From assembly GCA_013202205.1 (NCBI GenBank), contig JABMSB010000012.1, forward strand, positions 1 to 56,054: a stretch of DNA of 56,054 nt, in the 5' to 3' direction. Of the stretch, positions 2,001-33,399 are shown in pieces. Origin of the DNA: Candidatus Omnitrophota bacterium. Its GTDB lineage: Bacteria; Omnitrophota; Gorgyraeia; JABMSB01. Under the pieces are notes generated by a model. It did no database searches. It was not told the origin of the DNA and was given only the letters and a program-made list of their open reading frames with translations. Position 1 is the first letter of the stretch; every line of letters starts with the position of its first letter. Made by a program: the position numbers and the translations under genes.

Positions 2001-2450
2001 ATGATAACCGACAGAGAAGAGGCGATAAAGCTGATCGAACAGAAGTTTGGCAATCGCATCTTGAAATCATTCCGCAAGACGAAGAAGCGCTTATATATCG
2101 ATATTAAGCCAAGCGATGTGCCTGAGGTGGTTGGATTTATATTCCGAGACCTTGGCGCGCGCCATAATATCTCAACAGGCATAGATACCCCGGACGGCAT
2201 AGAGATACTCTATCACCTGGAGCTTGATAAGGCGCTTATAATCATAACCGTACGTACTCTTCTCGATAAGATGAAGCCCAAGGTTCCATCGGTAGCAGCT
2301 TCAATAACGGCATTCGATTGGATCGAGCGTGAGATCCACGATCTCCTGGGTGTGGAGTTTGTAGGGCATCCGGATATGAGGAGACTTTTATTATCAGATG
2401 ATTGGCCTGAGGGAAAACACCCGCTCAGGCGTGATTTTGAGGGGATATAA
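2001..2450 (+). CDS. NuoC/MbhK/EchD-like subunit
   Basis: [38 protein letters not shown]. Confidence 0.93.
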
Positions 2451-6580: not shown

Positions 6581-6924
6581 TATATCTGTTGACGTTCGTC
6601 TTATTCTCGATAGGATTATATGGCGTAGTGACCAAGAAGAACACGGTCAAGATCGTGATAAGCCTGGTTATAATGGAGTACGCGGTTAATCTTTTTCTGG
6701 TCCTTTTGGGTTATCGAAAAGGCGGCATAGCCCCGATAATGGAGAAGGGGCAGGAGATCCAGGAGTTTGCCGCTGCCACCGTTGACCCCTTGCCGCAGGC
6801 CTTGGTCCTTACAGCCATCGTTATCGGCCTGGGTGTCTTGGCCCTTATGGTATCGTTGTGCATAAGGTTGTATGAAAAGTACGGCACTTTTGATATTTCT
6901 GAAATGAAGAGGTTAAAAGGATGA
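6577..6924 (+). CDS. mnhC: MrpC/MnhC (NuoK-like) subunit
   Basis: VDPLPQALVLTAIVIG signature; ATGA overlap with the upstream gene. Confidence 0.92.
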   Translation: MIYLLTFVLFSIGLYGVVTKKNTVKIVISLVIMEYAVNLFLVLLGYRKGGIAPIMEKGQEIQEFAAATVDPLPQALVLTAIVIGLGVLALMVSLCIRLYEKYGTFDISEMKRLKG

Positions 6925-8435: not shown

Positions 8436-8443
8436 TTTTCAAG

Positions 8444-8953
8444 ATGAGAAGATTAACCCTATTTTTAATTTCGTTTCTGACATGGTGGCTCTTAACTTGG
8501 CCGTATGATTTCTCAAGCGGCCAGATGGATTGGCAGTCTTTTGCGCTCGGCATCTTTGCCGCGGGGCTCGTCTCGCTGCTCTTTGTCAGCATCTTCACAA
8601 AGAGCCCGCACAAGCTCTTTATCTTAAAGAGGTATCTATGGTTCCTCTATTACATACCCGTCTTCTTCTATTATTGCGTTAAGGCAAATCTCGATGTCGT
8701 TTACCGTGTATTACACCCTAAGATGCCCATCAACCCCGGGATAGTCAAGGTACGTACCAAATTAAAGAGCGAATCGGCTATAACCGCCCTGTGCAATTCA
8801 ATCACCCTTACGCCAGGTACACTATCGGTCGATCTTACAGATGATGGGTACATATATATTCATTGGATCAACGTTACATCACAGGACACAAAGAAGGCCA
8901 CCGAGGAGATAGTCACAAAGTTCGAGAAGATACTAGAAAGGATATTCGAATAA
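8444..8953 (+). CDS. mnhE: MrpE/MnhE (MbhA-like) subunit
   Basis: KANLDVVYRVL, PGIVKV, NSITLTPGTLSVD, YIHWI. Start moved to ATG 8444, just after the mnhD stop. Confidence 0.9.
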   Translation: MRRLTLFLISFLTWWLLTWPYDFSSGQMDWQSFALGIFAAGLVSLLFVSIFTKSPHKLFILKRYLWFLYYIPVFFYYCVKANLDVVYRVLHPKMPINPGIVKVRTKLKSESAITALCNSITLTPGTLSVDLTDDGYIYIHWINVTSQDTKKATEEIVTKFEKILERIFE

Positions 8954-9213
8954 TGCTGTATAATGTATTTTTTGGGATACTATTGACCTGCTCTTTTCTC
9001 TGTCTTTACAGGGTGGGGAGGGGGCCTACTGCGCCCGATAGGACAGTGGCTATAGATATACTGGGTATAGTGGTAGTCGGTTTCTGCGCGGTCTTATCCC
9101 TTATGACTGGAAAAGATTTTTACATGAATGTAGCGATAGCCTGGGCCTTATTGAGCTTCATCGGCACCCTGGCATTGGCAAAACATCTTGCAGGGAGGGG
9201 CTTCGATGAGTAG
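8953..9213 (+). CDS. mnhF: MrpF/MnhF (MbhB-like) subunit
   Basis: RVGRGPTAPDRTVAID; TAATG overlap gives the start at 8953. Confidence 0.9.
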   Translation: MLYNVFFGILLTCSFLCLYRVGRGPTAPDRTVAIDILGIVVVGFCAVLSLMTGKDFYMNVAIAWALLSFIGTLALAKHLAGRGFDE

Positions 9214-9541
9214 CCTTATAGGTTTGATCCTCATGGGTATAGGATTATTATTCGACCTCTTCGGCTGCATCGGTCTCGTCCGTCTGCCGGATGTATATAA
9301 CAGGCTCCAGGCGGCAACCAAATGCGTTACGCTCGGCACATGTTTCTTATTGAGTGGGGTGATGGTCTCAGAAGGTGTATCTGCCTTGAGTGTAAAGGCA
9401 TTGGTCTGCATGATATTTATTCTCATCATCTCTCCGACCGCGGCACATGCCATAGCCCGCGGCGCGCATCTTTCCGGAGTGAAGCTTTGGGAAGGTTCTG
9501 TCTGTGACAAGTATGCGGAAGATAGAGAAGGGAAGAAGTAG
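9206..9541 (+). CDS. mnhG: MrpG/MnhG (MbhC-like) subunit
   Basis: GLVRLPDVYNRLQAATK..TLG, SPTAAHAIAR. Confidence 0.92.
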   Translation: MSSLIGLILMGIGLLFDLFGCIGLVRLPDVYNRLQAATKCVTLGTCFLLSGVMVSEGVSALSVKALVCMIFILIISPTAAHAIARGAHLSGVKLWEGSVCDKYAEDREGKK

Positions 9542-10144
9542 ATGAAATATCCAAAACTGCGCGAACTTAAAGAAGCGATAAAGGCGTTAATAATGGGCCC
9601 TTATACGTCAAGTTTTCCCTTTAAGCCGCATGTGCCGCCAAAACAATTCCGCGGCAGGCCCAAATATGACGATAAGGAATGCATAGGCTGCCTGGCATGT
9701 GAAAACGTCTGTCCGGCCGGCGCCATAGACCATGAAGAGATAAAAAGGGGTGATAAACAGATAAGGCATATTACCACTCACCACGATCAGTGTATATTCT
9801 GCGGACACTGCCAGGTAAACTGCACCACCGAGAAGGGCATAATGCTCTCCAATGAATTTGATCTGGCCACCTTTGACAGAAAGGACTCATTCCACGACGT
9901 TGAGAAGGAGCTTGCCCTGTGCGAATGCTGCGGTGAAGTCGTAGCTTGCCAGGACCATCTCGTATGGATAAGCAAGCGCCTGGGGAGCCTCTCTTTCTCA
10001 AACCCCACGATATATCTGGCACACCTTAAGCAGTTAGGGGTGGTGGATGAGAATATCCAGGCTGCGGCAGAGGCGATGAGCCGCGGAGACCGCATGAAGA
10101 TCCTCTGTGTTGAATGCCGCCGTAAGGCCTCCCTAGAAAAATAA
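9542..10144 (+). CDS. 2x[4Fe-4S] subunit (NuoI/HycF/MbhN-like)
   Basis: FRGRP, CIGCLACENVCP, CIFCGHCQVNC, plus C-terminal CECC...CVEC as in HycF-type subunits. Confidence 0.9.
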   Translation: MKYPKLRELKEAIKALIMGPYTSSFPFKPHVPPKQFRGRPKYDDKECIGCLACENVCPAGAIDHEEIKRGDKQIRHITTHHDQCIFCGHCQVNCTTEKGIMLSNEFDLATFDRKDSFHDVEKELALCECCGEVVACQDHLVWISKRLGSLSFSNPTIYLAHLKQLGVVDENIQAAAEAMSRGDRMKILCVECRRKASLEK

Positions 10145-10147
10145 TCG

Positions 10148-10606
10148 ATGGACCAAAGACTAAAAGAAAAATTGAAGGCCTTCCTTAAAGGGAAGGCCGT
10201 CTTATTGGGTATAGGAAATATCCTAAAAGGCGATGATGGGATCGGCCCCGAGCTAATAAAGAGATTATCGGGACGTGTAGATTATAAGCTGATCGATTGC
10301 GGTACGACGCCTGAGAATTATGTCGGCCCCATACAAAAAGAGAATCCCGATACACTCATCTTGATAGACTGCGCCGACTTTGGAGCCGCGCCGGGTGAGA
10401 TAGGTATATTCGAGAAGGATAGAATTAAAGAAGTAGGCCTTACGACACACGACGCCTCGTGCAAACTCCTGATGGAAGTCCTATCAGAAACCATCCCGTC
10501 GATATTTATGATCGCTATCCAACCCGGATCGACGCAATTCGGTGAGAGTTTAAGTGCCGAAGCAGAAGAAGCCCTCCGAAAATTAGAAGAAATCCTCACC
10601 CAATAG
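10148..10606 (+). CDS. hycI: Hydrogenase maturation endopeptidase (HycI-like)
   Basis: LGIGNILKGDDGIGP, DCGTTPEN, LIDCADFG, TTHD. Confidence 0.9.
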   Translation: MDQRLKEKLKAFLKGKAVLLGIGNILKGDDGIGPELIKRLSGRVDYKLIDCGTTPENYVGPIQKENPDTLILIDCADFGAAPGEIGIFEKDRIKEVGLTTHDASCKLLMEVLSETIPSIFMIAIQPGSTQFGESLSAEAEEALRKLEEILTQ

Positions 10607-14182: not shown

Positions 14183-14191
14183 ATAGTACAC

Positions 14192-14287
14192 AAATACGGG
14201 GAGCCTCTATGGGAGGGGCTGAGAAAAGGGTAATACCCTTGACCCGAAGAACCTGACCTGGATAATTCCAGCGTAGGGAAGGTGAAT
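14192..14287 (+). ncRNA. TPP (THI-box) riboswitch aptamer; ends approximate
   Basis: GGGG...GCTGAGA...ACCCG...ACCTGA CCTGGATAATTCCAGCGTAGGGAA matches the TPP consensus and precedes a thiamine gene. Confidence 0.95.
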
Positions 14288-14295
14288 GTGAAATG

Positions 14296-14329
14296 GCCGC
14301 GCTGGACGCTGGAGTGCGGCTTACTATTT
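14296..14329 (+). terminator. Probable expression-platform terminator of the TPP riboswitch
   Basis: Stem GCCGCGCT/AGTGCGGC (one G-U pair) followed by TTACTATTT, just upstream of the thi4 SD. Confidence 0.55.
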
Positions 14330-14345: not shown

Positions 14346-15137
14346 ATGGAAAAGTTTCATCCTGTATCGGAGGCATCGATTACGAGGGCGATCACGGAGG
14401 AGTTCCTTAAGGAGTTCAGCGATGGGATAGTCTCCGACGTTATAATCGTTGGAGCAGGCCCGAGCGGACTAGTAGCGGCAAGGGACTTAGCAAAGAAGAA
14501 CGTCAAGGTAGTAGTTATTGAGGCAAATAACTATCTCGGCGGAGGTTTTTGGATTGGCGGATATCTTATGAATAAATTGACGGTTCGTAAGCCGGGTGAA
14601 TCTGTTCTCGATGAGATAGGAGTTCCCTATAAGGAGTTTGAAGAGGGCCTCTTTGTAGCCGATGGCCCACATGCATGCTCAAAACTTATTGCCGCGGCGT
14701 GTGATGCAGGTGTTAAGGTTTTAAACATGACGAAGGTGGATGATGTCGTTTGCAGAAAAGGCAGGGTAGAAGGTGTAGTCATCAACTGGACACCCGTTGG
14801 CGCGTTACCACGCGCAATCACATGCGTAGATCCTGTTGCGCTTGAAGCAAAGGTCGTTATCGATGCGACAGGCCATGATGCCCATGTTGCCCGCGCCCTC
14901 CAGAGAAGAAATCTCCTTAAGATGGAAGAATTTGGTGTGATGGATGTCGTTGCTTCAGAGGATGCCATAGTCGAGAAGACCTCAGAAGTCTTCCCGGGGC
15001 TTATTGTCTGTGGAATGGCAGTTTCAACCGTCTTTGGTCTGCCGAGAATGGGCCCGACCTTTGGCGGTATGCTCATATCAGGGAAGAGGGCAGCTGAGAT
15101 AGCCATAGCTAGCGTTTTAGATAAGGCACTAGTTTAA
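14346..15137 (+). CDS. thi4: Thi4-family thiazole synthase (Cys-type)
   Basis: VGAGPSG FAD motif, GGGFWIGG, TCVDP (Cys160), IDATGHD, PRMGPTFGGMLISG; lies under a TPP riboswitch. Confidence 0.93.
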   Translation: MEKFHPVSEASITRAITEEFLKEFSDGIVSDVIIVGAGPSGLVAARDLAKKNVKVVVIEANNYLGGGFWIGGYLMNKLTVRKPGESVLDEIGVPYKEFEEGLFVADGPHACSKLIAAACDAGVKVLNMTKVDDVVCRKGRVEGVVINWTPVGALPRAITCVDPVALEAKVVIDATGHDAHVARALQRRNLLKMEEFGVMDVVASEDAIVEKTSEVFPGLIVCGMAVSTVFGLPRMGPTFGGMLISGKRAAEIAIASVLDKALV

Positions 15138-15160: not shown

Positions 15161-15200
15161 ATGCTTACAGGGTAGGCTTACGCCTACCCTGTAGCATTTA
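15161..15200 (+). terminator. Strong hairpin after thi4, probable terminator
   Basis: ACAGGGTAGGC-TTAC-GCCTACCCTGT is a perfect 11-bp stem, extendable by ATGCT/AGCAT; the U-tract is short. Confidence 0.6.
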
Positions 15201-15288: not shown

Positions 15289-15317
15289 TTGACAAACCTT
15301 TTTTTTAATGGTATACT
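15289..15317 (+). promoter_or_regulatory. Sigma70-type promoter of the Rrf2/sulfur operon
   Basis: TTGACA-N17-TATACT with an A-rich upstream tract. Confidence 0.8.
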
Positions 15318-15329
15318 TGACATTGTCAA
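15317..15329. promoter_or_regulatory. Palindromic operator candidate over the transcription start
   Basis: TTGACA-T-TGTCAA perfect dyad directly after the -10 element. Confidence 0.5.
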
Positions 15330-15356: not shown

Positions 15357-15812
15357 ATGAAGCTGTCCAAGAAGACAGAATATGCGCTCAAAGCCCTGAT
15401 AGAATTGACCATCGATTACGATAAGGGTATCAATGTTACCTTGATCAACGATATAGCTGGGCGTGAAAATATACCACCCAGATATTTGGAGCAGATTCTG
15501 TTAAGGCTTAAGAATTCAGGGATATTAATCAGTAAGCGCGGGGTAGGAGGCGGATATGCTTTAAGCCGGCCGCCTGAAGAGATTAGCATGGGAGATGTGA
15601 TAAGAGAGGTTGAGGGATCGCTGGTCTCTAAAAATAGAAAGGTCGTAAATATCAGCGCCTCAGATGAAATGTCTTATGGCTTAAATAACGTTATGGCGGA
15701 GGCAACAGACGCCATGAAGAAGGTATTTGACAATATATCGCTAAAGGAGATGGCAGAGAGGATTTTCTATTCGATCGAGGCCAAGAAAGATATTCCGAAC
15801 TATGTTATATAG
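15357..15812 (+). CDS. Rrf2-family regulator, CymR-like (no Fe-S cysteines)
   Basis: EYALKAL, IPPRYLEQIL, SKRGVGGGYAL, VIREVEG; contains no Cys; ends ...IPNYVI. Confidence 0.9.
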   Translation: MKLSKKTEYALKALIELTIDYDKGINVTLINDIAGRENIPPRYLEQILLRLKNSGILISKRGVGGGYALSRPPEEISMGDVIREVEGSLVSKNRKVVNISASDEMSYGLNNVMAEATDAMKKVFDNISLKEMAERIFYSIEAKKDIPNYVI

Positions 15813-15820
15813 GTGAAGAG

Positions 15821-15934
15821 ATGGGAAGGCCGATGGAAAGAGAAGGGGTTAGGGCGGGGAAGGGCCACCGAAAAGAGATTGATTATTGTATGGGCATGCG
15901 ATGCTTTCCCGGTAGAAGGGAGCTGCTTATGTAA
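15821..15934 (+). CDS. Putative 37-aa leader peptide (MGRPMEREGVRAGKGHRKEIDYCMGMRCFPGRRELLM)
   Basis: AGGTGA SD at 15811-15816, ATG 15821, TAA 15932-15934; has a YCMGMRC segment. Read manually; not in the track. Confidence 0.35.
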   Translation: MGRPMEREGVRAGKGHRKEIDYCMGMRCFPGRRELLM

Positions 15935-15963
15935 TGTTGCCAAAGTTATTTACAAAAGCGAGA

Positions 15964-15998
15964 CCCACTACCAAAGAAGAGGTGAGTGGGATTTTTTT
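15964..15998 (+). terminator. Intrinsic terminator/attenuator hairpin upstream of DUF2061-cysH
   Basis: CCCACT-ACC...GGT-G-AGTGGG followed by A and seven T, immediately before the AAGGAGG SD. Confidence 0.6.
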
Positions 15999-16009
15999 AA
16001 GGAGGAGAG

Positions 16010-16231
16010 ATGGAACAGCACCGAAGGACCCTGGTCAAGACTATAACCTGGCGCGTAATAGCGTTATTTACCACTATTATTGTGGTCTATGCATATAGCG
16101 GTGATGTCAAAAAATCATTCGTAGTCGGAGGCGTGGCAAACGGCCTTAAGATGATATTCTATTATGTACATGAGCGAGTCTGGAATAGGTCGAAATTCGG
16201 AATAACTAAACCACCGGAGTATCAGATATAA
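16010..16231 (+). CDS. DUF2061 small membrane protein
   Basis: RTLVKTITWRVIA...YYVHERVWNR; AAGGAGG SD; ends ...PPEYQI. Confidence 0.85.
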   Translation: MEQHRRTLVKTITWRVIALFTTIIVVYAYSGDVKKSFVVGGVANGLKMIFYYVHERVWNRSKFGITKPPEYQI

Positions 16232-16266
16232 TTTGATGCGCCACAAAAGAGAAGGAGAGACAAGAG

Positions 16267-16983
16267 ATGAGCTTGTTGGAGAACAAGGAAGATCTGAAGG
16301 TGTTGGTGGAAGAGCTTAATTTCAAAGAGAAGGTTGAGCGTTCCAAGGCGATAATAAGCCAGGCATATGAAAAATATGGCGATGGCCTCGTTGTTGCAAA
16401 CAGCCTGGGCAAAGATTCCTTAGCAGTATGGGATCTTGCCAAGCGCGTAAACCCCAAGATTAGGGGTTTTATTGTAACGACACGCTATAAGCCAAAGGAG
16501 ACTGTCAAATTCATGGATGAGGAAGTCAAGATGTATCCGGAGCTTGAGGTCTACAAGTACGACGCAAAGATCCCGGAGCGTCTCTACGAAACGGATCCCG
16601 ATAAGTGCTGTGATCTCCTAAAGGTTATACCGGTCAAACAGGCTGTCGACAGGATGGGTGTTAAGTGCTGGGTCACCGGGCTGCGCTGCACAGAAGGGCG
16701 CACGCGCACGGACTTCAAAGAAGTAGAAGAGAGAGATGCCGGCCTGATTAAGCTAAACCCCATACTTATATGGAAAGAGCGTGAGGTCTGGCAGTATCTC
16801 GCCCTATACGGCGTTAGGGTAAATCCATTATATGCAGAAGGATATCGCTCGTTAGGTTGTGAGCCCTGCACGAGGATTACAAACGAGGACAATGAACGGG
16901 CCGGCCGTTGGATAGGTACGAGTAAATGCGGCGGTGAATGCGGTATACATACAAGGCCGCTAACTGATGGAGAAGGCATATGA
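16267..16983 (+). CDS. cysH: APS/PAPS reductase, [4Fe-4S]-containing APS-reductase type
   Basis: DKCCDLLKV, WVTGLR, GYRSLGCEPCT, ECGIH. Confidence 0.9.
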   Translation: MSLLENKEDLKVLVEELNFKEKVERSKAIISQAYEKYGDGLVVANSLGKDSLAVWDLAKRVNPKIRGFIVTTRYKPKETVKFMDEEVKMYPELEVYKYDAKIPERLYETDPDKCCDLLKVIPVKQAVDRMGVKCWVTGLRCTEGRTRTDFKEVEERDAGLIKLNPILIWKEREVWQYLALYGVRVNPLYAEGYRSLGCEPCTRITNEDNERAGRWIGTSKCGGECGIHTRPLTDGEGI

Positions 16984-17474
16984 AAAGCAAGTCTAACGCC
17001 CTGCAATATTATCCGCTTGCCGTAAAGCTGTCCGATGGGGTTGCGTTAGTTGTCGGCGGGGGTAAGGTTGCAGAGCGTAAGATAGCCACACTTCGGGATT
17101 GCAGAGCCAGGATACGTATGGTATCCCCGGGGGCAACAGATCTATTGAGGCGCCTTGCAAAGATGGGAAAGATTGAATGGGTCCGCCGCCATCTTCGGGA
17201 TAGTGATGTAAGAGGCGCGCGTATCGTAGTTGCAGCTACAGATGACAGGGATGTTAATGAAAGGGTCAGTCGATTGGCACGGAAACATCGGGTTTGGGTT
17301 AATGTTGTAGACAAACCGATTTTGAGTGATTTTATATCACCTGCGCTCTTTCGCACAAAAAAGAGCATAGTGACTGTCTATACGGATGGCAGGGATCCGG
17401 TGCTCTCTCGCGACCTTAAGAATTTCCTGAAGGAGAGATGGGATGATTTCTTATCTTATAGGGATAGATTATAG
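16980..17474 (+). CDS. Precorrin-2 dehydrogenase/ferrochelatase (SirC / CysG N-terminal-like), C-terminally short
   Basis: YYPLAVKL, VVGGGKVAERK, AATDD..VN, WVNVVD.P..SDFISPA. Confidence 0.88.
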   Translation: MKSKSNALQYYPLAVKLSDGVALVVGGGKVAERKIATLRDCRARIRMVSPGATDLLRRLAKMGKIEWVRRHLRDSDVRGARIVVAATDDRDVNERVSRLARKHRVWVNVVDKPILSDFISPALFRTKKSIVTVYTDGRDPVLSRDLKNFLKERWDDFLSYRDRL

Positions 17475-18468
17475 TACCGCTTCAATAGAGGAGCGGGAAA
17501 GGGCTTATCGCCTGCGCCGCAGGATAGAGGCATATTGGCGATTTGTGAATCCGGGCGGTGTTGCAGTGCTTACTACCTGTAACAGGATTGAAATATACGG
17601 TATTTCATCCAGTCGGGGTGAGGCTGAAGCTTTTGGGATATTGTTCCGGCAGAAGTTCAAGAGCTGTTTTAAGAACGGATACGTCATATACGGTGACAAT
17701 GGTCTCTTCGCTCATGCCATTCGGTTAGCCTGTGGCCTCAAATCCAGAATAAAAGGTGAACCCCAGATAGTAGAGCAGTTGGAGGTATGGCTCGATCATA
17801 AGAGTTTTCCCGGTCCCCTCAAAAGTATCTTAAGCAGGGCCCTCGAATCCGGCAAAGAGGTTCGCGCGAGATCCGGCATAGATAGAAATAAGGTCGATAT
17901 TGCGGATCTTGTACTCAATGATCTTGGTATGGAGGTTGCCTCCGGACGAAGGGCGAAGGTGCTAGTTATGGGCACGGGCAAGATCGCATCTTTGATTGCC
18001 GAGAAACAACCCGGATCAGTATACATAATATTCGCCGCGCGCAAAAAGCTCGCGAAGGCCAAGAGGCTTGCGAAGCTGGCAGGAGGCGAGGCGATATTAT
18101 ATGAAGAGATAGATAGATATCTGGATTCAGCGGATGCGGTAGTAAGTGCTACTTCCAGCCCTCATCGCGTCTTAGCCGCGCGCAATTTTGCCTCGGCGAT
18201 TAAGACGCGCAGGACGCCTTTATATATTTATGACCTGGCCATGCCTCGCGACGTTGCGCCGGATATCCATAAGATACCTTTTGTAGTAATGAGAGATGTC
18301 GAGGGTCTGATAGAGAGGTTTTATCGTAAAGAGAGCGGCATAACCAGGAGCCTTGAGCTTGCATCGAAGCTCATAGGGTCAAAGATTGCCGAATATAAGG
18401 AGTCGACAGGTGTTAAAGAGTATACTGATTGGCACACGGCCCAGCCGATTGGCATTGAAGCAGGTTGA
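17443..18468 (+). CDS. hemA: Glutamyl-tRNA reductase, divergent and short
   Basis: TTCNRIEIY (catalytic Cys), GEPQI, GTGKIA, SATSSPH, DLAMPRDV; 341 aa. Confidence 0.85.
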   Translation: MISYLIGIDYSTASIEERERAYRLRRRIEAYWRFVNPGGVAVLTTCNRIEIYGISSSRGEAEAFGILFRQKFKSCFKNGYVIYGDNGLFAHAIRLACGLKSRIKGEPQIVEQLEVWLDHKSFPGPLKSILSRALESGKEVRARSGIDRNKVDIADLVLNDLGMEVASGRRAKVLVMGTGKIASLIAEKQPGSVYIIFAARKKLAKAKRLAKLAGGEAILYEEIDRYLDSADAVVSATSSPHRVLAARNFASAIKTRRTPLYIYDLAMPRDVAPDIHKIPFVVMRDVEGLIERFYRKESGITRSLELASKLIGSKIAEYKESTGVKEYTDWHTAQPIGIEAG

Positions 18469-19063
18469 TGAGATCGCCCGGCGCCTGCCCGAGATCGATT
18501 TCGATATAGTCCCGATTGAGACGAGAGGGGATAAGGATAAGGTCACGCCATTGACAGGACCGAATAAGGACGATTTCTTTACATATGAGATAGAGAAGGC
18601 GCTTCTGGAGGGCGAGATAGATGTCGCAGTCCATAGCGCAAAGGATCTTGAAGAGGTACCTCCTCAAGGACTTGTGATAGCTGCTAGGACAGGCTCCGTC
18701 AGCCCATTCGAATGTCTGATATCAAAAGGGGATCTTAAATTGAAGGAGCTTCCCCCCGGTGCGGTAGTTGGAACCAGCAGCCACAAGCGCAAAACCGCGG
18801 TTATCAATTTCAGAAGGGATCTTAAGGTTAAGGATATTCGCGGCAATATAGATGAGCGCATAAGACAGCTTGAAGAAGGCAAATTTGACGCGATCATTAT
18901 AGCGCACGCCGCATTGATCAGGCTTGGGTTTGAGGAGAGGATTTCAGAGATAATACCGCCGGACATTATCGCGCCGCACCCGCTTCAGGGAAGGCTGTCG
19001 ATACAGGTCCGCGCTGACAGAAAAGAGCTGATAGGCCTATTTGGGAGCATCGATGGAGAGTAA
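18410..19063 (+). CDS. hemC: Hydroxymethylbilane synthase-like protein lacking domain 3
   Basis: IGTRPSRLA, ETRGD, AVHSAKD, VGTSS, IRGNIDER; stops after LQGRLSIQVR. GTG start at 18410 with AAGGAG SD. Confidence 0.88.
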   Translation: MLKSILIGTRPSRLALKQVDEIARRLPEIDFDIVPIETRGDKDKVTPLTGPNKDDFFTYEIEKALLEGEIDVAVHSAKDLEEVPPQGLVIAARTGSVSPFECLISKGDLKLKELPPGAVVGTSSHKRKTAVINFRRDLKVKDIRGNIDERIRQLEEGKFDAIIIAHAALIRLGFEERISEIIPPDIIAPHPLQGRLSIQVRADRKELIGLFGSIDGE

Positions 19064-19772
19064 AAGAGGAAGGGTATATATAATCGGAGCAGGACCGGGA
19101 GACCCCGAGCTTATTACCGTCGGAGGGCTCAAGGCCTTGAAAAGGGCAGATTGCGTCCTGTATGACTTCTTGAGCAACTCAGAGCTGCTTAAGCATGCGA
19201 AAGATTCGTGCGAGCGGATATGCGTCGGCAAGGCGGACGGGTTACACTTAAAAGAGCAGGGTGAGATAAATCGCCTGCTCTATAAAAAGAGCAAGGAATA
19301 TAGAGTGACCGTACGCCTTAAAGGCGGTGATCCATTTATATTCAGCCGCGGCGCTGAGGAGGCGAGATATCTTAAGAAGAAAGGGGTGCGGGTTGAGGTG
19401 ATACCGGGCATTACATCAGCGATCGCAGGCCCCGAGAGTTTCGGTATCCCGCTTACGGTGAAGAATAAGATCTCATCGGTAGCTATAATAACCGGAAGAA
19501 AGAAGGATACAAACGCAGAGATAGAAGCGCCAAGGTGCGGCACGCTGGTCTATCTTATGGCCGTTGGCAATATCTCAAATGTCGTAAAGGCGCTGCGCAG
19601 GAATAAGTGGAGTGAGGCGACACCATGCGCTTTTATTGAACGCGCAACTCGAAAAGATACGCGCATTATACATGCCACCATTGCGACAATAGAAGAAGAG
19701 GCGCAGAGGGCGAAGATAAGGCCGCCGGCTGTTTTGGTTGTAGGGGAGGTAGTCAATTATGGCAAAGAGTAG
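19053..19772 (+). CDS. cobA: Uroporphyrinogen-III C-methyltransferase (stand-alone, no HemD fusion)
   Basis: VYIIGAGPGDPELIT, RLKGGDPFIFSRGAEE, VIPGITS, PPAVLVVGEVV. Confidence 0.93.
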   Translation: MESKRGRVYIIGAGPGDPELITVGGLKALKRADCVLYDFLSNSELLKHAKDSCERICVGKADGLHLKEQGEINRLLYKKSKEYRVTVRLKGGDPFIFSRGAEEARYLKKKGVRVEVIPGITSAIAGPESFGIPLTVKNKISSVAIITGRKKDTNAEIEAPRCGTLVYLMAVGNISNVVKALRRNKWSEATPCAFIERATRKDTRIIHATIATIEEEAQRAKIRPPAVLVVGEVVNYGKE

Positions 19773-20706
19773 ATATGGGGTCGATATAGATTCTTTGGTT
19801 TATCCGGTCTTTGTAAGGCAGGGCATAGATCTACAGCAACCCATTCCCTCAATGCCGGGGGTCTATAGATTTTCGCCTGATAGTCTGGCGAAAGAAGTCG
19901 ATCGACTTTTGAAGATAGGGATCAAGAAGATCCTACTTTTCGGTATAACAGAAGAGAAGGACGAATGCGGTACAGCCGCTTATGGTGATAAGAGTATAGT
20001 ATCGACCACGATCGGCCTGTTAAAGCATCTATTCCCTGAGCTGATTATTATGACGGACGTTTGCCTGTGTGCCTACACATCACATGGCCACTGCGGTATC
20101 TTAAATAGATCGAGCGACGATGTCTTAATAAATAAAGATAAGACACTTCATGCATTATCAGAGATGGCTCTTTCGCATGCAGCCGCAGGCGCCGATTATG
20201 TAGCACCCTCGGCCATGGCTGAAGGACAGGTAAGTTCTATAAGAAAGGCGCTGGATGGAAATGGTTTTAAAGAGACGCGGATCATGGGGTATTCTGCCAA
20301 GTACGCCTCGCAGTTTTACGGCCCATTCAGGGATATTGCCGATTCAGCCCCGCGATTTGGTGATAGATGCCAGTATCAGCTGGGTTGGACAGAGAGGGAA
20401 CGCGCATTCTCAAAGATCGAGGATGACATAAGAGAGGGGGCAGATATCGTCATGGTCAAGCCTGCCCTCGCATATCTCGACATCATACGAGAAGCCAGGG
20501 ATAAGTTTCGCCATAGATTAGCAGCATACAACGTGAGCGGGGAGTATGCCATGATAAAGGCAGGCGCACAATCCGGATATTGGGATGAAGAAGAGGCAGT
20601 CTTTGAAGTCATGACCGCGATAAAGAGGGCAGGTGCCGATATTGTCATAACATACCATGCCCCGGACATAGCAAGATGGCTGAATCGAGGAGGAGTCCCT
20701 CAGTGA
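19759..20706 (+). CDS. hemB: Porphobilinogen synthase (Zn-type)
   Basis: DVCLCAYTSHGHC, APSAM, YSAKYAS.FYGPFRD, VMVKP, AYNVSGEYAMIKA. Confidence 0.95.
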   Translation: MAKSRYGVDIDSLVYPVFVRQGIDLQQPIPSMPGVYRFSPDSLAKEVDRLLKIGIKKILLFGITEEKDECGTAAYGDKSIVSTTIGLLKHLFPELIIMTDVCLCAYTSHGHCGILNRSSDDVLINKDKTLHALSEMALSHAAAGADYVAPSAMAEGQVSSIRKALDGNGFKETRIMGYSAKYASQFYGPFRDIADSAPRFGDRCQYQLGWTERERAFSKIEDDIREGADIVMVKPALAYLDIIREARDKFRHRLAAYNVSGEYAMIKAGAQSGYWDEEEAVFEVMTAIKRAGADIVITYHAPDIARWLNRGGVPQ

Positions 20707-21965
20707 GAAGAGTTGTCGATAACAAGAAGAGCACCAAGATTATAAAGGCGGCAAAATGCGTTTTGGTGGGCGGCGTAAATAGTCCTGTCCGTTCATTTTC
20801 ATATGTCGGAGGAGATCCCATACCTATCTATTCAGGCCGCGGATCGCGGATCTGCGATTACGACCACAACTGGTATATAGATTATGTCCTTTCTTACGGG
20901 GCCCTTATCCTTGGGCATACACGGCCTGAGGTTATGCAGAGCATAAAGCAGACGGCCGATTTGGGTGTGGGATTTGGCGCTACCCATAAGCTGGAGGTAG
21001 AGTTGGCGGAGCGCATTAAGGCCGCGATACCGCTCCTAAAGAAGATCCGCTTTGTCTCATCCGGCACAGAAGCTGTAATGGGTGCCGTAAGGCTTGCCCG
21101 AGGTGTAACCGGCAGGAGCAAGATAATAAAGTTTGAGAGGTCTTATCACGGTCACGCCGATTATCTCTTAAAGAAGGCAGGCTCCGGCCTGGCAACGATG
21201 GAGTTGCCTCTAAGTAAGGGGGTGCCAAAGAGCCTCCTGCAAGATACAATTATTGCCCGATACGGGGATAGAAATGAGATAGATAAGATATTTGCGAAGT
21301 TCGGGCCGGATATCGCGGCCATTCTTGTGGAGCCTGTAGGAGGAAATGACGGCGTTGTTTTACCCGATAAAAATTTTCTTAAAATTTTAAGACGAATAAC
21401 AAAAAGATACGGGACGCTATTAATTTTTGATGAGGTTATAACAGGATTTCGTTTCCATTTTGGTTCTGCCGCTGCCTATTTTGGCATAAGGCCGGATATT
21501 ATCTGTCTGGGTAAAATAATAGGCGGAGGATTACCCATCGGGGCATATGGTGGGAGCAAGAGAGTAATGGATCAGTTGGCCCCGCTCGGCGGTGTCTATC
21601 AGGCATCTACCTTTGCAGGAAATCCGGTCGTCATGAGCGCAGGCCTAAGCACTCTTAAAGTCCTGGCTTCATCGAGAAGAGATTACAGGCGGTTGGATAG
21701 ATTGGCCCTCTATTTAAGCCGGGCCGTCTTGGAGGAAGCTCGAAAACAGAGAATAGATCTATCGATAAGGCAATTCAAGGGTATCTTCAGCATCCATTTT
21801 AAAAAGAAGAGCCATTTTAAGGTCTTCTACAGAGAGCTCTTAAATGCGGGGGTCTATTTAGCACCGTCAGAACATGAGTCAAATTTTATCTCATTTGCGC
21901 ATACAAAAAAAGATATAGATAAGACGATCGGGATCGCGAAGAAGGCATTGTGCCTTTTAAAATAA
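20703..21965 (+). CDS. hemL: Glutamate-1-semialdehyde 2,1-aminomutase
   Basis: GGVNSPVR, VSSGTEA, YHGHAD, FDEVITGFR, LGKIIGGGLP; GTG start overlaps the hemB stop (GTGA). Confidence 0.95.
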   Translation: MRRVVDNKKSTKIIKAAKCVLVGGVNSPVRSFSYVGGDPIPIYSGRGSRICDYDHNWYIDYVLSYGALILGHTRPEVMQSIKQTADLGVGFGATHKLEVELAERIKAAIPLLKKIRFVSSGTEAVMGAVRLARGVTGRSKIIKFERSYHGHADYLLKKAGSGLATMELPLSKGVPKSLLQDTIIARYGDRNEIDKIFAKFGPDIAAILVEPVGGNDGVVLPDKNFLKILRRITKRYGTLLIFDEVITGFRFHFGSAAAYFGIRPDIICLGKIIGGGLPIGAYGGSKRVMDQLAPLGGVYQASTFAGNPVVMSAGLSTLKVLASSRRDYRRLDRLALYLSRAVLEEARKQRIDLSIRQFKGIFSIHFKKKSHFKVFYRELLNAGVYLAPSEHESNFISFAHTKKDIDKTIGIAKKALCLLK

Positions 21966-21976
21966 GGAGAAAAACG

Positions 21977-22693
21977 ATGACAAAGGATATAGATTACGAT
22001 GCTCTGAAAAAGAGAGGTTTTTTGCGGCAGAAACAAGAGGGCCTCTTTTTGCTGAGGGCAAGGGGCGCAAAAGGCAACTATACGAGAGAAGAGTTTCTTA
22101 TCTTTGGTGATATATCGAGGAAATATGGTAAGGGGATTATCCATGCCACCACACGCCAGGGGCTCGAGATACCATTTATCCGCTTCGAAGATATAGAGAA
22201 TGTTGAGAGAGAGATATTGGAGGCAGGTATCCAGCCCGGGACATCAGGCCCACGCATACGGACAACGACCACCTGCCCGGGTAATAACTGGTGCAAGAGC
22301 GGGCTCATCGACCCATTTTCGTTATACGATAGAATAGAAAAAGATATCGGGATAAGATGCGGGATGGACCTACCCCACAAATTTAAGATAGCCATATCCG
22401 GATGCCCCAACAAGTGCACGAGGGCAAATAGCACCGAAATAGGCATACACGGCCAATCGGATACCTCAGGTCCGGAAAGAAGGATAGGGTATACTGTCTA
22501 TCTGGGGGGATGCGGCGGCAGAACACCCCATGAGGGCTTTAAGCTCGATAAAGTTTTTACAGAAGATGAAGTCTTATCTATAGTTGAGAGAGTGGTCAGG
22601 TTTTATAAAGAGAATGCCAAGTCGCGCCAGCGCCTGGCACTCTTGATAAAAGAGAGAGGCAAAGGTCTTTTCTTAAAAGAGGTTGGGTTATAA
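21977..22693 (+). CDS. Low-molecular-weight siroheme-[4Fe-4S] sulfite/nitrite reductase (single-repeat, alSir-like)
   Basis: HATTRQGLE, RIRTTTTCPGNNWC and FKIAISGCPNKC give the Cx5C...Cx3C ligands; about 238 aa with no ferredoxin insertion. Confidence 0.85.
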   Translation: MTKDIDYDALKKRGFLRQKQEGLFLLRARGAKGNYTREEFLIFGDISRKYGKGIIHATTRQGLEIPFIRFEDIENVEREILEAGIQPGTSGPRIRTTTTCPGNNWCKSGLIDPFSLYDRIEKDIGIRCGMDLPHKFKIAISGCPNKCTRANSTEIGIHGQSDTSGPERRIGYTVYLGGCGGRTPHEGFKLDKVFTEDEVLSIVERVVRFYKENAKSRQRLALLIKERGKGLFLKEVGL

Positions 22694-22786: not shown

Positions 22787-23686
22787 ATGAGCCTGATACC
22801 TAAATTCAGGAAATCACCTAAAATCGTCCCCACAAAGTCGGTTCAGCCAGAACCGACTAAGCCAAAAGAGAAGACGTCAGGTAAGCGCCTTAATAGTATA
22901 ACGATCGGTATACTGCTGCTCTGTCTGGCAAATATGATCTTCCTCATTTTAAGCCTCTCATTCTACATCAATAAGGCCTCTGATGAGGCGGCAACCTTTG
23001 CTGCTTCTGAAAGCGGAGAACGCCTTGGACATCACAGGGGTATCATAGCTAAAGAGGTAGCTGTGATGCGCAAGACTGCGGATGTTTTGAAGGAAGAGGT
23101 GGATTCACAGGCCACCTCGGTCTCAAATATGGAGAAGGAGCTAAGTGAAAAGATCGAAGAGCAAAAGTCAGCATCCCAGGAATTGCAAAAGCTGGACAGT
23201 ATGATGGCGGAGATGAAGAGGGGTCTGATGGAGACGGTTACCAATAGAGATTCCCTTATGAACGAGATAGTAAGGTTAATCAAACAGAATAAGGTATTGA
23301 AGATAAAGCTCATACAGCTGGGCAGCGCAAGAGAGATTTTGACAAATAAGATGACAGAGATACTCGGCGCCATACGGAAAGATATGGAGGTTGCCAGGTT
23401 GGCAGCTAAGCTGGAGGAGCCCAAGGATGACGGGGGCAGTATCCTGCGCATAAATAGGGAGAAGAATTTTATAATAACCGACATGGGCCAGGAGGATGGT
23501 TTAGAGATGGGTAATCTCCTCGAGGTTTACCATGGCAAGATACTCGTCGGTGAGCTGGAGGTTGAGCGGGTTATGGATAACCTCTCCATAGGTAAAGTGA
23601 TGCCGGGTTGGCTTGAAGATGAAGTGATCCGCAAGGGTGATCGAACAGTGCTAAAAAAAGAAGAGGAAAGCGCAAGCGGTATCTGA
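22787..23686 (+). CDS. Hypothetical membrane-anchored coiled-coil protein with a C-terminal beta-rich domain
   Basis: One TM (ITIGILLLCLANMIFLILSLSFYI), a long heptad-like region, then ILRINREKNFIITDMG...LEVYHG..LVGELEV, which resembles a FlgT C-terminal-like barrel. Confidence 0.7.
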   Translation: MSLIPKFRKSPKIVPTKSVQPEPTKPKEKTSGKRLNSITIGILLLCLANMIFLILSLSFYINKASDEAATFAASESGERLGHHRGIIAKEVAVMRKTADVLKEEVDSQATSVSNMEKELSEKIEEQKSASQELQKLDSMMAEMKRGLMETVTNRDSLMNEIVRLIKQNKVLKIKLIQLGSAREILTNKMTEILGAIRKDMEVARLAAKLEEPKDDGGSILRINREKNFIITDMGQEDGLEMGNLLEVYHGKILVGELEVERVMDNLSIGKVMPGWLEDEVIRKGDRTVLKKEEESASGI

Positions 23687-24879: not shown

Positions 24880-25860
24880 ATGGATATAAGAGCGATAAAT
24901 GAGATGGTGAAGAAGGAGAGCATATTTGTCCAACAGCTCTTGCAGGAGATGAAAAAATCTATTGTGGGCCAGGACTATCTGTTGGAGAGGCTCTTATTAG
25001 CGCTTTTGGCCAATGGCCATATATTAATAGAAGGCGTGCCGGGGCTGGCGAAGACGATGTCAGTGCGCGTCTTGGCAAGCGCGATAAGTACCGGTTACCA
25101 GAGGCTGCAGTTTACACCTGACCTCTTACCGGCCGATCTCATAGGTACGCTCGTCTACAATCCTAAGGATGGAGGATTTGTGACGAAGAAAGGCCCCATA
25201 TTTTCCAATATAATCCTTGCCGATGAGATAAACCGCGCCCCAGCCAAGGTCCAATCGGCACTCCTTGAAGCGATGCAGGAACGCCAGGTTACGATAGGTG
25301 ATGAGACCTTCAAACTCGATGACCCATTTCTGGTACTTGCGACACAGAACCCCATTGAGCAGGAAGGTACATACCCATTGCCGGAAGCGCAGATTGACCG
25401 CTTTATGCTTAAGGTAAATATAACCTATCCGAATAAGAAAGAAGAGAGGGAGATAGTCGAACGCTGGGCCACAAAGGATGAGCTGAGCGTCAAGAAGGTC
25501 GTCTCGCCCAAGGATATAATAAAGGCGCGTGATGTTGTAAAAGAAGTTTACATAGACGATAAGGTAAAGGACTACATTATCGATATAGTATTTGCCACGC
25601 GCAACCCGGAAGATTATAAACTCGACATGAAGAACCTTATCGGCTACGGCGCTTCGCCGCGCGCCTCACTTTATCTCACCAGGTGCGCCAAGGCCTACGC
25701 ATTCATAAGAGGGCGTGGATATGTAACACCGGAGGATGTGAAGGCGATAGGTATGGACGTGCTGCGCCACCGCGTAATAGTAACTTATGAAGCGGAAGCG
25801 GAGGAGAAGCGCTCAGAGGACCTGATAAAACGTATATTTGACGAAATAGAAGTTCCTTAA
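24880..25860 (+). CDS. moxR: MoxR-family AAA+ ATPase
   Basis: EGVPGLAKT (Walker A), QFTPDLLPAD, LADEINRAPAKVQSALLEAMQE, ATQNPIEQEGTYPLPEAQIDRF, GASPRA. Confidence 0.96.
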   Translation: MDIRAINEMVKKESIFVQQLLQEMKKSIVGQDYLLERLLLALLANGHILIEGVPGLAKTMSVRVLASAISTGYQRLQFTPDLLPADLIGTLVYNPKDGGFVTKKGPIFSNIILADEINRAPAKVQSALLEAMQERQVTIGDETFKLDDPFLVLATQNPIEQEGTYPLPEAQIDRFMLKVNITYPNKKEEREIVERWATKDELSVKKVVSPKDIIKARDVVKEVYIDDKVKDYIIDIVFATRNPEDYKLDMKNLIGYGASPRASLYLTRCAKAYAFIRGRGYVTPEDVKAIGMDVLRHRVIVTYEAEAEEKRSEDLIKRIFDEIEVP

Positions 25861-30720: not shown

Positions 30721-33399
30721 ATGGGTCCTATGATTAAGAGATTATTTTTAATAATTCTAACTTTTCTGATTGCCGGATCTGCGGCCGCGCAGGATATTAT
30801 CTTTGATGCGGATGTGGATAAGGACAGCATAACGATGAATGAGCAGATGCTTCTTACCCTGACTGTAAGGGGCAGTGTCCAGAACATGGGCAGGCCGCAG
30901 ATGCCGAATATAGACGGGTTTTCAATATACTCGAGCGGCAATTCTCAGAATATATCGATCATACAGGGTAGGGTTTCGAGCCTATTTGCCTATAACTATA
31001 CCCTGATACCAAAGCGGCCGGGTAAGTTTACGATAGGTTCCTGCTATATAGATGTTGGTGGTAGAAGTTACAAGACAAATCCTATCGCGGTCGAAGTCGT
31101 CTCTGGTTCTGTAAGCGGCAAAGTACCACCACCCAAAGTGTCGCCTACACCGCCATCCGTAAGTCCGCGTTCGCGGCGGCCATCGAGAATCACTACAGAG
31201 GCAGGAGGCGATGAGAACCTCTTTATCGTAGCCGAGGTCGACAAATATAGAGCTTATGTAAATGAACAGATAACGCTTACATTTTACTTTTATCGCGCGG
31301 TAAGGCTTCTCGAGAATCCCGAATACGCGCCACCCGATACAACGGGATTTTGGGTTGAGGACCTGCCTCCCCAGAAGAATTACTACGATACAGTAGGCGG
31401 CAAGAGATATTTGGTCGCGGAGCTTAAGACAGCACTCTTCCCGACATCTCCGGGTAAATATGAGATAGGTCCGGCTACTCTACGCTGTATAGTCGAGACG
31501 AGAGGAAGGGGATCTGTCTTTGAGATGGACCCGTTCGATATATTCCACCGGGACATCTCAGACCTATTTGGGGGTGGTAAGGCAGTTATGCTAAAATCGA
31601 GGCCGATAGATATAGAGGTCCTGCCGCTCCCCGAAGAAGGTAAACCAAAAGAGTTTGCAGGCAGTGTCGGTGATTACCAGGTAAGCGCATCTTTGGATAA
31701 GGCCGAAGTGGAGGCCACGCAGCCCGTAACATTGGAGCTGCGCGTAAAAGGCAAAGGTAATGTGAAGACGGTAGCGAAACCGGAACTCCCGGCAATGGCA
31801 AACTTTAAGACGTATGATTCAGGGAGTACGACGAATACATCGAAGGAGAGCTATACCGTCCAGGGAGAGAAGATATTCAAATATATACTTATACCAAAGA
31901 AGGAAGGTAAATACGACATACCGGGGTTGGATCTTACCTATTTCGATCCGGACAAACGCAAATATATCACGAAGGCGGCAAATTCCCTTCATCTATCCGT
32001 TGCGCCGGCGCCCAAAGACGCAAAGGCGGGGCCGATGATAAGCTTCACCCCGGAAAAAGAGTCGGTCCGTTTTTTAGGGCGCGACATACATTATATAAGG
32101 CCCGAGATAGGGTCCCTAGAGACCAAGCACTGGTTGACGCGCCAGGTAGCCGCATCAATACTCGGCATACCAGCGTTCCTATTTTTGATAGCGCTTGCCT
32201 ATAATAGGCATAGCAGTCGGTTGGCTACAGATACAAGTTATGCGCGCCATACGAGGGCCCAGCGCAGGGCAAAGAACATGTTAAGACGGGCGAACGCGCT
32301 TCTCGGTAAGGCAAAGTCAAAAGAATTTACCTCTGCTTTATGGAAGGCGCTATCGGAATATATAGCCGATAGATTGAATGTCCCTCCCGCTACCATCAAT
32401 GCCGACTATGTGAGAGATGAGTTGACGAAACGCGATGTTGCCAGTAGCATAGTAGATATGGCAAATGACTGTTGCCAGGAGCTTGAGGTAGCACAATTTG
32501 CGCCGATGGAACCAAACGAAGCGTCACTCCGCTCCCTGCTTGATAAGACCGAGGAGGTTATAGTGGAATTGGAGCGCTCTAAGTTCTACAAAAAGAAGAA
32601 GAACGGCCAAGGCAAAAAGATAATAGGCCTTATCGTCGTGTTATTAATCGCGCAAGGAGTCTTCTTATCTCTTGCTTCCTTTGCTGAACCGGATGTTGCT
32701 GAAGGGTCTCCTTATGAGGTCCTCTTCGGTGAGGCGAACGAGGCATATAAGGCGCAGGATTACCAAAGGGCGATCTCAACATATGGAGAGATACTCGACC
32801 GTGGCATCATATCGGTCAATATATATTACAACCTGGGCAATACATATTACAAGCTCGGCGAACTTGCTCCCGCTATCTTAAATTACGAACGTGGATTAAA
32901 GATCAATCCCGGTGACGCTCAACTGATAGATAACCTTGCCCTGGCCCGTTCCCGTACGGTCGACAAGATAACGGTTGCCGGGAAGAATTATCTGGTATGG
33001 CTGACCGAAAGGCTATTAGGGTTGCTTCCTTACAGGTCCTTTGCCGTCTTTACGCTGGTGGTCTATCTATTATTTATGATTATCGCAATATCAGGTCTAT
33101 TATCAAGGCCTGCAAGGCCGCAGGTCTTTAAGGCCGCTGTTATCTTAGGATGCATATTTATAGCCGGATTACTGTTATTTATGACCGACAGATATTTGGA
33201 GAAGAACCGGATACCCGCTATCGCTATGAAAGAGGAAATCCCTGTGCGTTATGGACCGTCGGAAGCCGATACGATAGCCTTTAATGTGCACAGCGGTACG
33301 AAGGTCTTTATCACCGGTTCTGAGGGTAGCTGGTATCAGATAAGGCTGGAGAGCAACGAAGGCGGCTGGGTCAATATGGAGGCGCTGGAGAAGATTTAA
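30721..33399 (+). CDS. batD: BatD-BatE fusion (BatD Ig domains, TM, TPR, SH3)
   Basis: BatD-like repeats, TM near aa 480, a second signal-like segment, [12 protein letters not shown], and a C-terminal SH3-like WYQIRL...GWV. Confidence 0.85.

Follow-up and report, generated by a model that had tools for sequence, protein, structure and literature searches.

C-terminal isoleucine tails on three consecutive sulfur-assimilation proteins of an Omnitrophota bacterium are candidate ligands of cysteine synthase CysK

The stretch analysed here, hereafter the window, is a contig of 56,054 nucleotides (nt) from a Candidatus Omnitrophota bacterium (JABMSB010000012.1, assembly GCA_013202205.1), in which the genes form an array on one strand. 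Three consecutive genes encode an Rrf2-family regulator, a small protein of family DUF2061, and CysH, an assimilatory reductase of adenosine 5'-phosphosulfate (APS) or 3'-phosphoadenosine 5'-phosphosulfate (PAPS); their closest named homologues come from Omnitrophota/Omnitrophica metagenome-assembled genomes. Each of the three proteins ends in a free C-terminal isoleucine (NYVI, EYQI and GEGI, respectively), and these ends resemble the peptides by which several proteins dock in the active site of cysteine synthase, CysK. The open reading frames (ORFs) were confirmed, and the three C-termini (IPNYVI, PPEYQI and TDGEGI) were exactly those given in an initial annotation of the window. The genes and the codons of their tails are as follows.

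15357..15812, + strand: Rrf2-family regulator, 151 amino acid residues (PF02082, 111.8 bits, E = 3.4e-32), ending ...DIPNYVI
15798-15809, + strand: codons of the Rrf2 tail N-Y-V-I
16010..16231, + strand: DUF2061 protein, 73 residues (PF09834, 61.9 bits against a cut-off of 23.1, E = 7.8e-17), ending ...KPPEYQI
16217-16228, + strand: codons of the DUF2061 tail E-Y-Q-I
16267..16983, + strand: assimilatory APS/PAPS reductase CysH, 238 residues (PF01507, 134 bits; NF002537, 168.9 against a cut-off of 154), ending ...LTDGEGI
16969-16980, + strand: codons of the CysH tail G-E-G-I

CysE docks in CysK by its C-terminal tail, in which the terminal isoleucine provides about 80% of the binding energy, and O-acetylserine (OAS) displaces the tail (PMC12895370; PMC3805590). 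The tail of Staphylococcus aureus CymR, YMFYI, was crystallised inside the CysK active site and has a Kd of 25 nM, and the CysE tail DDYII is a further ligand available for comparison (bioRxiv 10.1101/2024.09.19.614015). The C-terminal toxin of CdiA (CdiA-CT) carries the motif GYGI, of which the C-terminal isoleucine is essential (PMC12895370), and the tightest pentapeptide for Salmonella CysK was MNYDI (Kd 220 nM; PMC3805590), which is one residue away from the NYVI of Rrf2 and near the EYQI of DUF2061. The initial annotation had appealed to the C-terminal isoleucines of CysE, CymR and CdiA in CysK, an appeal borne out by the crystal structure with CymR, the GYGI motif of CdiA and the isoleucine of CysE. 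The partners recognised as of 2026 are CysE, CymR, the CdiA toxin and EGL-9, and 'alternative regulatory partners' are posed as an open question (PMC12895370); we found no report of CysH, DUF2061, CysA or CysN as a CysK partner in the literature searched.

Taken by itself, the window gives a weak signal, barely above chance. Isoleucine ends 6 of its 48 genes, and the expectation for three consecutive cases is 0.014-0.09. When the tail pattern was defined as [YFW]xI or GxGI at the C-terminus, it was found in 1.3-1.6% of a background set of 1,562 unrelated ORFs from 160 related loci, and the expectation for three adjacent genes with the pattern was 1-2e-4. We regard the conservation of the tails across orthologues as the decisive evidence, as far as sequence comparison can provide it. 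The initial annotation had proposed this comparison against background, and the terminal isoleucine was found in 39/39 close homologues of DUF2061, 102/120 of Rrf2 and 76/120 of CysH. In the orthologue alignments, the terminal isoleucine and a tyrosine at position -2 are near-invariant, and the neighbouring residues are highly variable. A conserved terminus behind a variable linker, as seen in these alignments, is what characterises a short linear motif added to the end of a protein, and the structure models described below agree with it.

The Ile-ending homologues of Rrf2 extend down to 41% identity, and 95% of them have tyrosine at -2. The entropy of this tyrosine is 0.28 bit, against 2.1-2.9 bit at positions -1 and -3 to -11, with the exception of a partly conserved glutamate at -10 (1.6 bit). 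The 151-residue sequence has no cysteine, so that the protein holds no Fe-S cluster and is CymR-like, and the gene lies beside sulfur genes in the window and in all 18 of the 18 Rrf2-bearing loci compared. The Rrf2 tail is a further member of the known CymR kind. One subgroup of the homologues (P0145-P0157, where such identifiers denote proteins of the homologue and representative sets; 42-47% identical, 153-162 residues) has an arginine-rich end, ...RRRR, in place of the isoleucine tail; it is presumably a natural contrast group that works without CysK.

DUF2061 (PF09834) is widespread (about 6,000 clusters at 50% identity) and uncharacterised; the six papers found to mention it do so in passing, and none names it in a title or abstract. 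The protein of the window matches the profile over its whole length (positions 1-52 of 52). In an AlphaFold2 (AF2) model it has helices at residues 2-30 and 33-60, followed by a coil at 61-73 with a predicted local distance difference test score (pLDDT) of 53-57, which forms a tail of 13 residues. The protein is predicted to be a two-helix hairpin in the inner membrane with both ends in the cytoplasm (N-in/C-in), an orientation inferred solely from the distribution of charges. All of the close homologues (66-95% identity) end in P-[ED]-Y-x-I, the proline at -4 being kept in 97% and the tyrosine and isoleucine in 100%. The tail is missing in distant members of the family, in which the chain stops right after the domain, and it is lacking in most PF09834 members, including those of archaea and Patescibacteria and the tandem-repeat forms.

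To place the tailed forms, we used a DUF2061-anchored sample of 80 genome loci from many phyla, obtained by searching a single genome of each species with an alignment of DUF2061 and classifying the neighbours locally (L001 and similar labels denote loci of this sample and of the cysK-anchored sample described below). A gene for CysH, sulfite reductase (SiR) or CysK lay within 8 kb in 29/36 loci with a [YF]-x-I DUF2061, compared with 3/44 loci with a tail-less one (Fisher's test, p = 6e-12, not corrected for phylogeny), and cysK itself lay within 10 kb in 7/36 and 0/44 loci, respectively (p = 0.0026). Tailed DUF2061 genes are found in sulfate-assimilation clusters of Omnitrophota, Sulfurimonas, Sulfuricurvum, Melioribacter, Margulisbacteria and Glassbacteria; the order in Sulfuricurvum is cysK-DUF2061-cysH, and in Verrucomicrobia the gene directly follows cysA. 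Judged by gene context, tailed DUF2061 is a subfamily tied to sulfate assimilation. A neighbour-joining tree of the 50-residue core placed the tailed forms in three to four groups, the core being too short for the tree to be trusted.

Fusions connect the family with the same pathway. DUF2061 is fused N-terminally to APS kinase in Nitrospinota and Gemmatimonadales (L045:4764-5489 and L060:9983-10711), and a tandem DUF2061 pair is fused to an Inositol_P/CysQ-type phosphatase of 3'-phosphoadenosine 5'-phosphate (PAP) and to a PHP-domain protein (P0344 and P0400). The profile search of the representative library returned mostly tandem DUF2061 proteins and was informative only for such fusions and for independent tailed lineages. 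The fusions to enzymes of the APS/PAPS/PAP branch suggest that the whole family is tied to sulfate activation, where DUF2061 seems to serve enzymes of sulfate assimilation as a small anchor. They also lend indirect support to the membrane tether suggested in the initial annotation.

The CysH protein has the Fe-S cysteines C114-C115 and C198-x-x-C201 and the catalytic motif ECGIH with Cys225, followed by the linker TRPLTD and then by GEGI; all five cysteines (C114, C115, C198, C201 and C225) are invariant in the CysH alignment. The protein does not reach the cut-off of the APS-specific model TIGR02055 (130.9 against 235.3). Among the homologues that are at least 78% identical, 74 of the 76 Ile-ending proteins have G-x-G-I, and GDGI, which is also the C-terminus of Escherichia coli CysE, accounts for 68%. 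This end follows the invariant ECGIHTRPL after two, three, four or five unconserved residues (linker entropy 2.8 bit), and the remainder of the 120 homologues stop shortly past RPLK. The initial annotation had ranked the CysH tail as the weakest of the three cases; this tail, too, is conserved in orthologues. Residues 199-238, including Cys225 and the tail, have a pLDDT below 50 in the AF2 model and were read as disordered, and Cys225 lies only 13 residues before the terminal isoleucine.

Related Omnitrophota, and members of other phyla, have a CysK-type gene (TIGR01139) within the corresponding cluster. The order in L001, from an Omnitrophota single-cell genome (GCA_042570265.1), is DUF2061(...DYEI)-cysH-siroheme-SiR-Rrf2(...NYCI)-cysK. 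All six cluster CysKs tested passed the cysK cut-off of TIGR01139 and not that of CysM, and all seven that were aligned retain the T-S-G-N-T loop and the glutamine that hold the peptide carboxylate (residues according to PMC12895370). The CysK of L001 (17260-18225) matches CysK of E. coli/Salmonella over its full length with E of about 1e-141 and is far closer to it than other Omnitrophota CysKs are; this suggests that it was either acquired recently by horizontal transfer or stems from a contaminating fragment, but the flanking genes are typical of Omnitrophota.

An independent sample was anchored on cysK and comprised 80 metagenome loci retrieved with an Omnitrophota CysK. Neighbouring Rrf2 proteins ended in isoleucine in 26/27 cases, mostly as MYYI, and CysE ended in G[EL]GI in 6/9 cases, five of which were GEGI, identical to the last four residues of CysH in the window. 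When Rrf2 and CysE were excluded, the motif was present in 7/155 same-strand genes within three positions of cysK, compared with 1/250 farther away (p = 0.006). The seven were three HPr-like proteins (GAGI/GGGI), a CysA ATPase (EYDI), a LuxR-type response regulator (EYHI), a MetX-like hydrolase (SYDI) and a DUF2292 protein. The numbers are small and their direction is consistent.

Comparison with the established systems brings out both likenesses and differences. In Bacillus subtilis and S. aureus, CysK acts as an OAS sensor through insertion of the CymR tail, and the regulator of the window resembles CymR as an Rrf2 repressor without Fe-S ligands, located among sulfur and cysteine genes and having an aromatic-x-Ile end; it differs from CymR in that its N-Y-V-I has tyrosine at -2 in place of Phe-Tyr and that cysK is not adjacent. 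The pair of CysE and CysK likewise involves a flexible tail that ends in isoleucine; CysE beside cysK ends in GEGI as CysH does in the window, and GDGI is the commonest CysH tail, but here the tail belongs to an APS/PAPS reductase, which acts three steps earlier in the pathway, and lies directly past the catalytic ECGIH cysteine. CdiA-CT(UPEC536) with CysK and EGL-9 with CYSL-1 are cases in which unrelated proteins independently gained ...GYGI or an isoleucine tail, indicating that the motif is portable; those carriers are a toxin and a prolyl hydroxylase, whereas the present ones are core sulfur-assimilation proteins and an uncharacterised membrane protein. In plants, O-acetylserine (thiol)lyase (OASTL) binds the STAS domain of the sulfate transporter SULTR1;2, with reciprocal regulation (PMC4263312). 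This is an analogous recruitment of cysteine synthase by a membrane sulfate component, to be compared with DUF2061 and with CysA proteins bearing E[DY]-Y-x-I; the plant contact is made through a folded domain, for which use of a C-terminal isoleucine is not known, and DUF2061 has no transporter domain.

From these observations we consider it probable, at roughly 0.6, that the three tails are short linear motifs selected to insert their C-terminal isoleucine into the active site of a CysK encoded elsewhere in the genome. This reading is based on the flexibility of the tails, the conservation of their termini, a chemistry that matches known ligands and the co-occurrence with sulfate-assimilation genes and cysK neighbourhoods. 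The chemistry is either an aromatic residue at -2 with a free terminal isoleucine (as in MNYDI, YMFYI and GYGI) or Gly-acid-Gly-Ile (as in CysE beside cysK). DUF2061 and CysH are accordingly candidates for new classes of CysK partner with a known docking mode, and the suggestion of the initial annotation that they may be such partners is supported, at the level of candidates, by tail conservation and sulfur-gene context.

If CysK does receive these tails, OAS, the signal of limiting sulfide, would compete for its pocket and release Rrf2, DUF2061 and CysH. Rrf2 and CysK, like CymR and CysK, would form a co-repressor complex that shuts the operon at low OAS. Capture of the CysH tail by CysK would pull it off the active site of the reductase and throttle APS reduction as long as OAS is lacking as an acceptor of sulfide, and OAS would release it; capture could switch the reductase off because Cys225 and the isoleucine share a mobile tail, which has to close over the active site. 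The DUF2061 tail, competing with Rrf2 and CysH, would tether CysK to the membrane or sequester it there, and DUF2061 would here have a docking tail in place of the covalent enzyme fusions of other lineages.

Several points weigh against this reading. Pfam searches found no cysK of this genome in the window, as the initial annotation had stated, or within about 10 kb beyond either end. The association statistics ignore phylogeny, and the Omnitrophota loci are one clade. The best specific NCBIfam model for the regulator is CymR, yet the score is 79.5 bits against a cut-off of 195 (NF047409), and the protein should be described as a CymR-like Rrf2 and not filed as a CymR orthologue. A third of the close CysH homologues have no tail, indicating that the tail is dispensable for catalysis. 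The inhibition of CysH and the tethering by DUF2061 are pure inference. Finally, [YF]-x-I-COOH fits the generic hydrophobic-x-hydrophobic pattern of C-terminal PDZ ligands, and in the window, L007 and L008 the isoleucine codon of cysH, ATA, overlaps the ATG of the next gene, where GGAGAAGG is a possible Shine-Dalgarno (SD) sequence. The last two points bear on rival explanations.

The PDZ pattern would be expected if the tails were selected but docked elsewhere: in a PDZ-type or tail-specific protease, in another fold-type-II enzyme dependent on pyridoxal 5'-phosphate (PLP), such as CysM, cystathionine beta-synthase or the ThrC-like protein of L013, or in one another. The lack of cysK in the window and its flanks, the low number of tailed DUF2061 loci with cysK nearby (the 7/36 given above) and the presence of further PLP enzymes in these clusters speak for such a receptor. 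We nevertheless consider it unlikely, given that the tails are of two types unrelated in sequence (aromatic-x-Ile and G-acid-G-Ile), each of which is a proven or canonical ligand of CysK, and that both are found on genes flanking cysK in the independent sample. Bacterial PDZ proteases also reside mostly in the periplasm, whereas the tails are predicted to lie in the cytoplasm. Peptides of this kind are not bound by CysM-type enzymes (PMC3805590, PMC12895370).

The overlap of cysH with the next gene raises the question of whether G-[DE]-G-I is a by-product of the nucleotide sequence, with GGAGAAGG serving as the SD sequence and ATATGA as the overlapping stop and start of the gene for the CysG N-terminal domain, so that the peptide has no function. 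In the three loci with the overlap, the Gly-Glu/Asp-Gly codons do lie 5-12 nt upstream of the ATG. In L012, L018 and L025, on the other hand, the gene after cysH starts past the stop codon with its own SD sequence, the next gene of L012 and L018 being a different one, and GDGI or GEGI is intact. The codons of the tail, moreover, vary synonymously at every third position (GGA/GGT/GGC/GGG for glycine, GAT/GAC/GAA/GAG for the acidic residue and ATA/ATT/ATC for isoleucine). The codon variation and the retention of the tail in loci with a separate SD sequence for the following gene imply that selection acts on the peptide. A second PAPS_reduct paralogue in L025 ends in GEGI as well, as does CysE near cysK. 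An origin of the CysH tail as a ribosome-binding site was largely rejected on the codon variation and the arrangement in L012, L018 and L025, and we regard it as quite improbable.

The tails could instead be C-terminal degradation or stability signals that tune protein levels to sulfur status without involvement of CysK. Conserved, exposed and disordered C-termini are typical sites of degrons, and the presence/absence polymorphism of the CysH tail suggests a regulatory accessory. The motif is unlike known bacterial C-degrons such as the ssrA-like LAA; it matches verified CysK ligands residue for residue and tracks cysK neighbourhoods, and we regard this explanation as similarly improbable. Coincidence, that is, three genes side by side that happen to end in a common residue, could appeal to the Ile-ending genes of the window and an expectation of up to 0.09 on isoleucine alone, but is refuted for practical purposes by motifs kept in dozens to a hundred orthologues, behind variable linkers and despite deep divergence of the cores, against the low background. 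The other three Ile-ending ORFs of the window, two of which the initial annotation had correctly listed as unrelated ORFs ending in GI, are as follows.

2001..2450: NuoC-like ORF, ending DFEGI
22787..23686: protein of 299 residues, ending SASGI
30721..33399: BatD-like ORF, ending EKI

Homologues of these three were absent from 166 loci, and their ends were treated as chance and not as docking tails.

Similar tails were found on further proteins. In the DUF2061-anchored loci they occur on CysA (EDYSI), on CysN/CysNC (DFAI, EFAI and DFQI), on a ThrC-like PLP enzyme (HYSI) and on a ThiI/NFACT-R protein. The aromatic-x-Ile ends of CysA and CysN/CysNC come from Verrucomicrobia, Proteobacteria-like and Margulisbacteria loci, and were present in 3/11 CysN and in 3/3 true CysA (those with the C-terminal regulatory domain of CysA or the same C-terminus). 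HPr-like (PTS-HPr) proteins carry G-[AG]-G-I directly upstream of cysK. The ThiI-like PP-loop protein, which has a C-terminal NFACT-R_2 domain, ends in isoleucine in four of four copies (EYII, EYMI, PFRI and SLRI), and in L022 and L023 its gene separates Rrf2 from cysK, whereas in L001 it comes just before DUF2061. The positions are listed below.

L078:8855-9931, L063:2689-4227 and L158:3038-4099: CysA, ending ...EDYSI or ...YEYDI
L083:8279-9598, L053:3085-4539 and L062:7856-9655: CysN/CysNC, ending ...DFAI, ...EFAI and ...DFQI
L135:4964-5230, L158:4083-4352 and L142:135-428: HPr-like proteins
L022:17278-18267, L023:7667-8656, L001:8795-9790 and L028:8810-9808: ThiI-like proteins with NFACT-R_2

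In L158, CysA, an HPr-like protein and Rrf2 are encoded consecutively before cysK, and all three have isoleucine tails; in L135, cysK is flanked by genes for an HPr-like protein, the LuxR-type response regulator (EYHI) and CysE (GLGI). The three tails of the window seem to be a local view of this wider pattern. We tentatively propose, with a confidence somewhat short of an even chance, that CysK serves as a common hub and receives portable tails ([DEN]-[YF]-x-I or G-x-G-I) which many unrelated sulfur-assimilation proteins of different phyla may have acquired independently, and that OAS, by expelling all of these tails from one pocket, would simultaneously gate uptake, activation, reduction and transcription. 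The carriers, proposed with the same reserve, would be CysE, Rrf2/CymR, DUF2061, CysH, CysA, CysN/CysNC and the ThiI-like, HPr-like, MetX-like and LuxR-type proteins.

The clusters of L013, L012, L046 and L062 also contain genes for a ThiS/CysO-like sulfur carrier, a MoeB/ThiF-like activator, a JAMM protease and MetY-like sulfhydrylases, and L001 also carries HcyBio and NIL-ferredoxin. These additional genes suggest that protein-thiocarboxylate and archaeal-type homocysteine routes operate alongside CysK in these organisms.

Putative regulatory elements accompany the three genes. A sigma-70-like promoter, read from the sequence, precedes Rrf2, and a perfect palindrome, TTGACATTGTCAA, overlaps its TATACT element as a candidate operator for autoregulation by Rrf2. 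The palindrome occurs once in the window, where 0.06 occurrences are expected, and was found in none of the related loci in which it was sought; as it is not conserved there, it is a weak candidate. Between Rrf2 and DUF2061 lies a leader in which a first hairpin spans about 15895-15935 and a second, terminator-like one about 15964-15995; the second is followed by a run of T just 5' of the ribosome-binding site of DUF2061. The leader is kept in six of the seven related loci compared (the window, L007, L008, L009, L010 and L014), with only four covarying pairs, and a search of it for riboswitches gave no Rfam family at E <= 1. Possibly it is a novel attenuator, or an element resembling a riboswitch, that controls the operon of DUF2061, cysH, the siroheme genes and SiR.

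15289-15294 and 15312-15317, + strand: TTGACA and TATACT of the promoter-like element, with a 17-nt spacer
15317-15329: palindrome TTGACATTGTCAA
15813..16009, + strand: leader of 197 nt between Rrf2 and DUF2061

The remainder of the operon (16980..22693) consists of a siroheme/haem branch and a NIR_SIR gene, assigned with Pfam and NCBIfam, and its gene order is shared with L001 and many Omnitrophota loci. Upstream of Rrf2 lies a gene for the sulfide-dependent thiazole synthase Thi4, itself preceded by a thiamine pyrophosphate (TPP) riboswitch and followed by a terminator hairpin.

14187-14296: TPP riboswitch (RF00059, 67 bits), upstream of Thi4
14346-15137: Thi4, upstream of Rrf2
15166-15193: terminator hairpin, 3' of Thi4
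16980-17474, + strand: CysG N-terminal domain
17443-18468, + strand: HemA
18386-19063, + strand: HemC
19041-19772, + strand: uroporphyrinogen-III methyltransferase
19759-20706, + strand: HemB
20676-21965, + strand: HemL
21950-22693, + strand: small NIR_SIR sulfite-reductase-like protein

Elsewhere, the window contains a cluster for a membrane-bound [NiFe] hydrogenase of the Mbh/Mrp type (146-10606), with hyp maturation genes immediately upstream of the window, and a MoxR-DUF58-BatA-BatD 'aerotolerance' operon (24880-33399). It also has two full-length paralogues of the carbamoyl-phosphate synthase large subunit (38667-41909 and 46500-49742; 1080 residues each, 53% identical), which flank purQ/purL/purF-like genes on both sides.

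If the docking of these tails in CysK is real, CysK would control far more of sulfur metabolism than the few known partners suggest. The candidates can be tested with short peptides, and one of them would provide the first functional handle on DUF2061. An APS reductase gated by CysK, if true, would be a new point of post-translational control that prevents the build-up of sulfite and sulfide when the carbon acceptor is lacking. Should the pattern generalise, CysK would be a metabolite-controlled scaffold for the whole pathway, which would also bear on present attempts to use peptides that mimic the tails as drugs against CysK.

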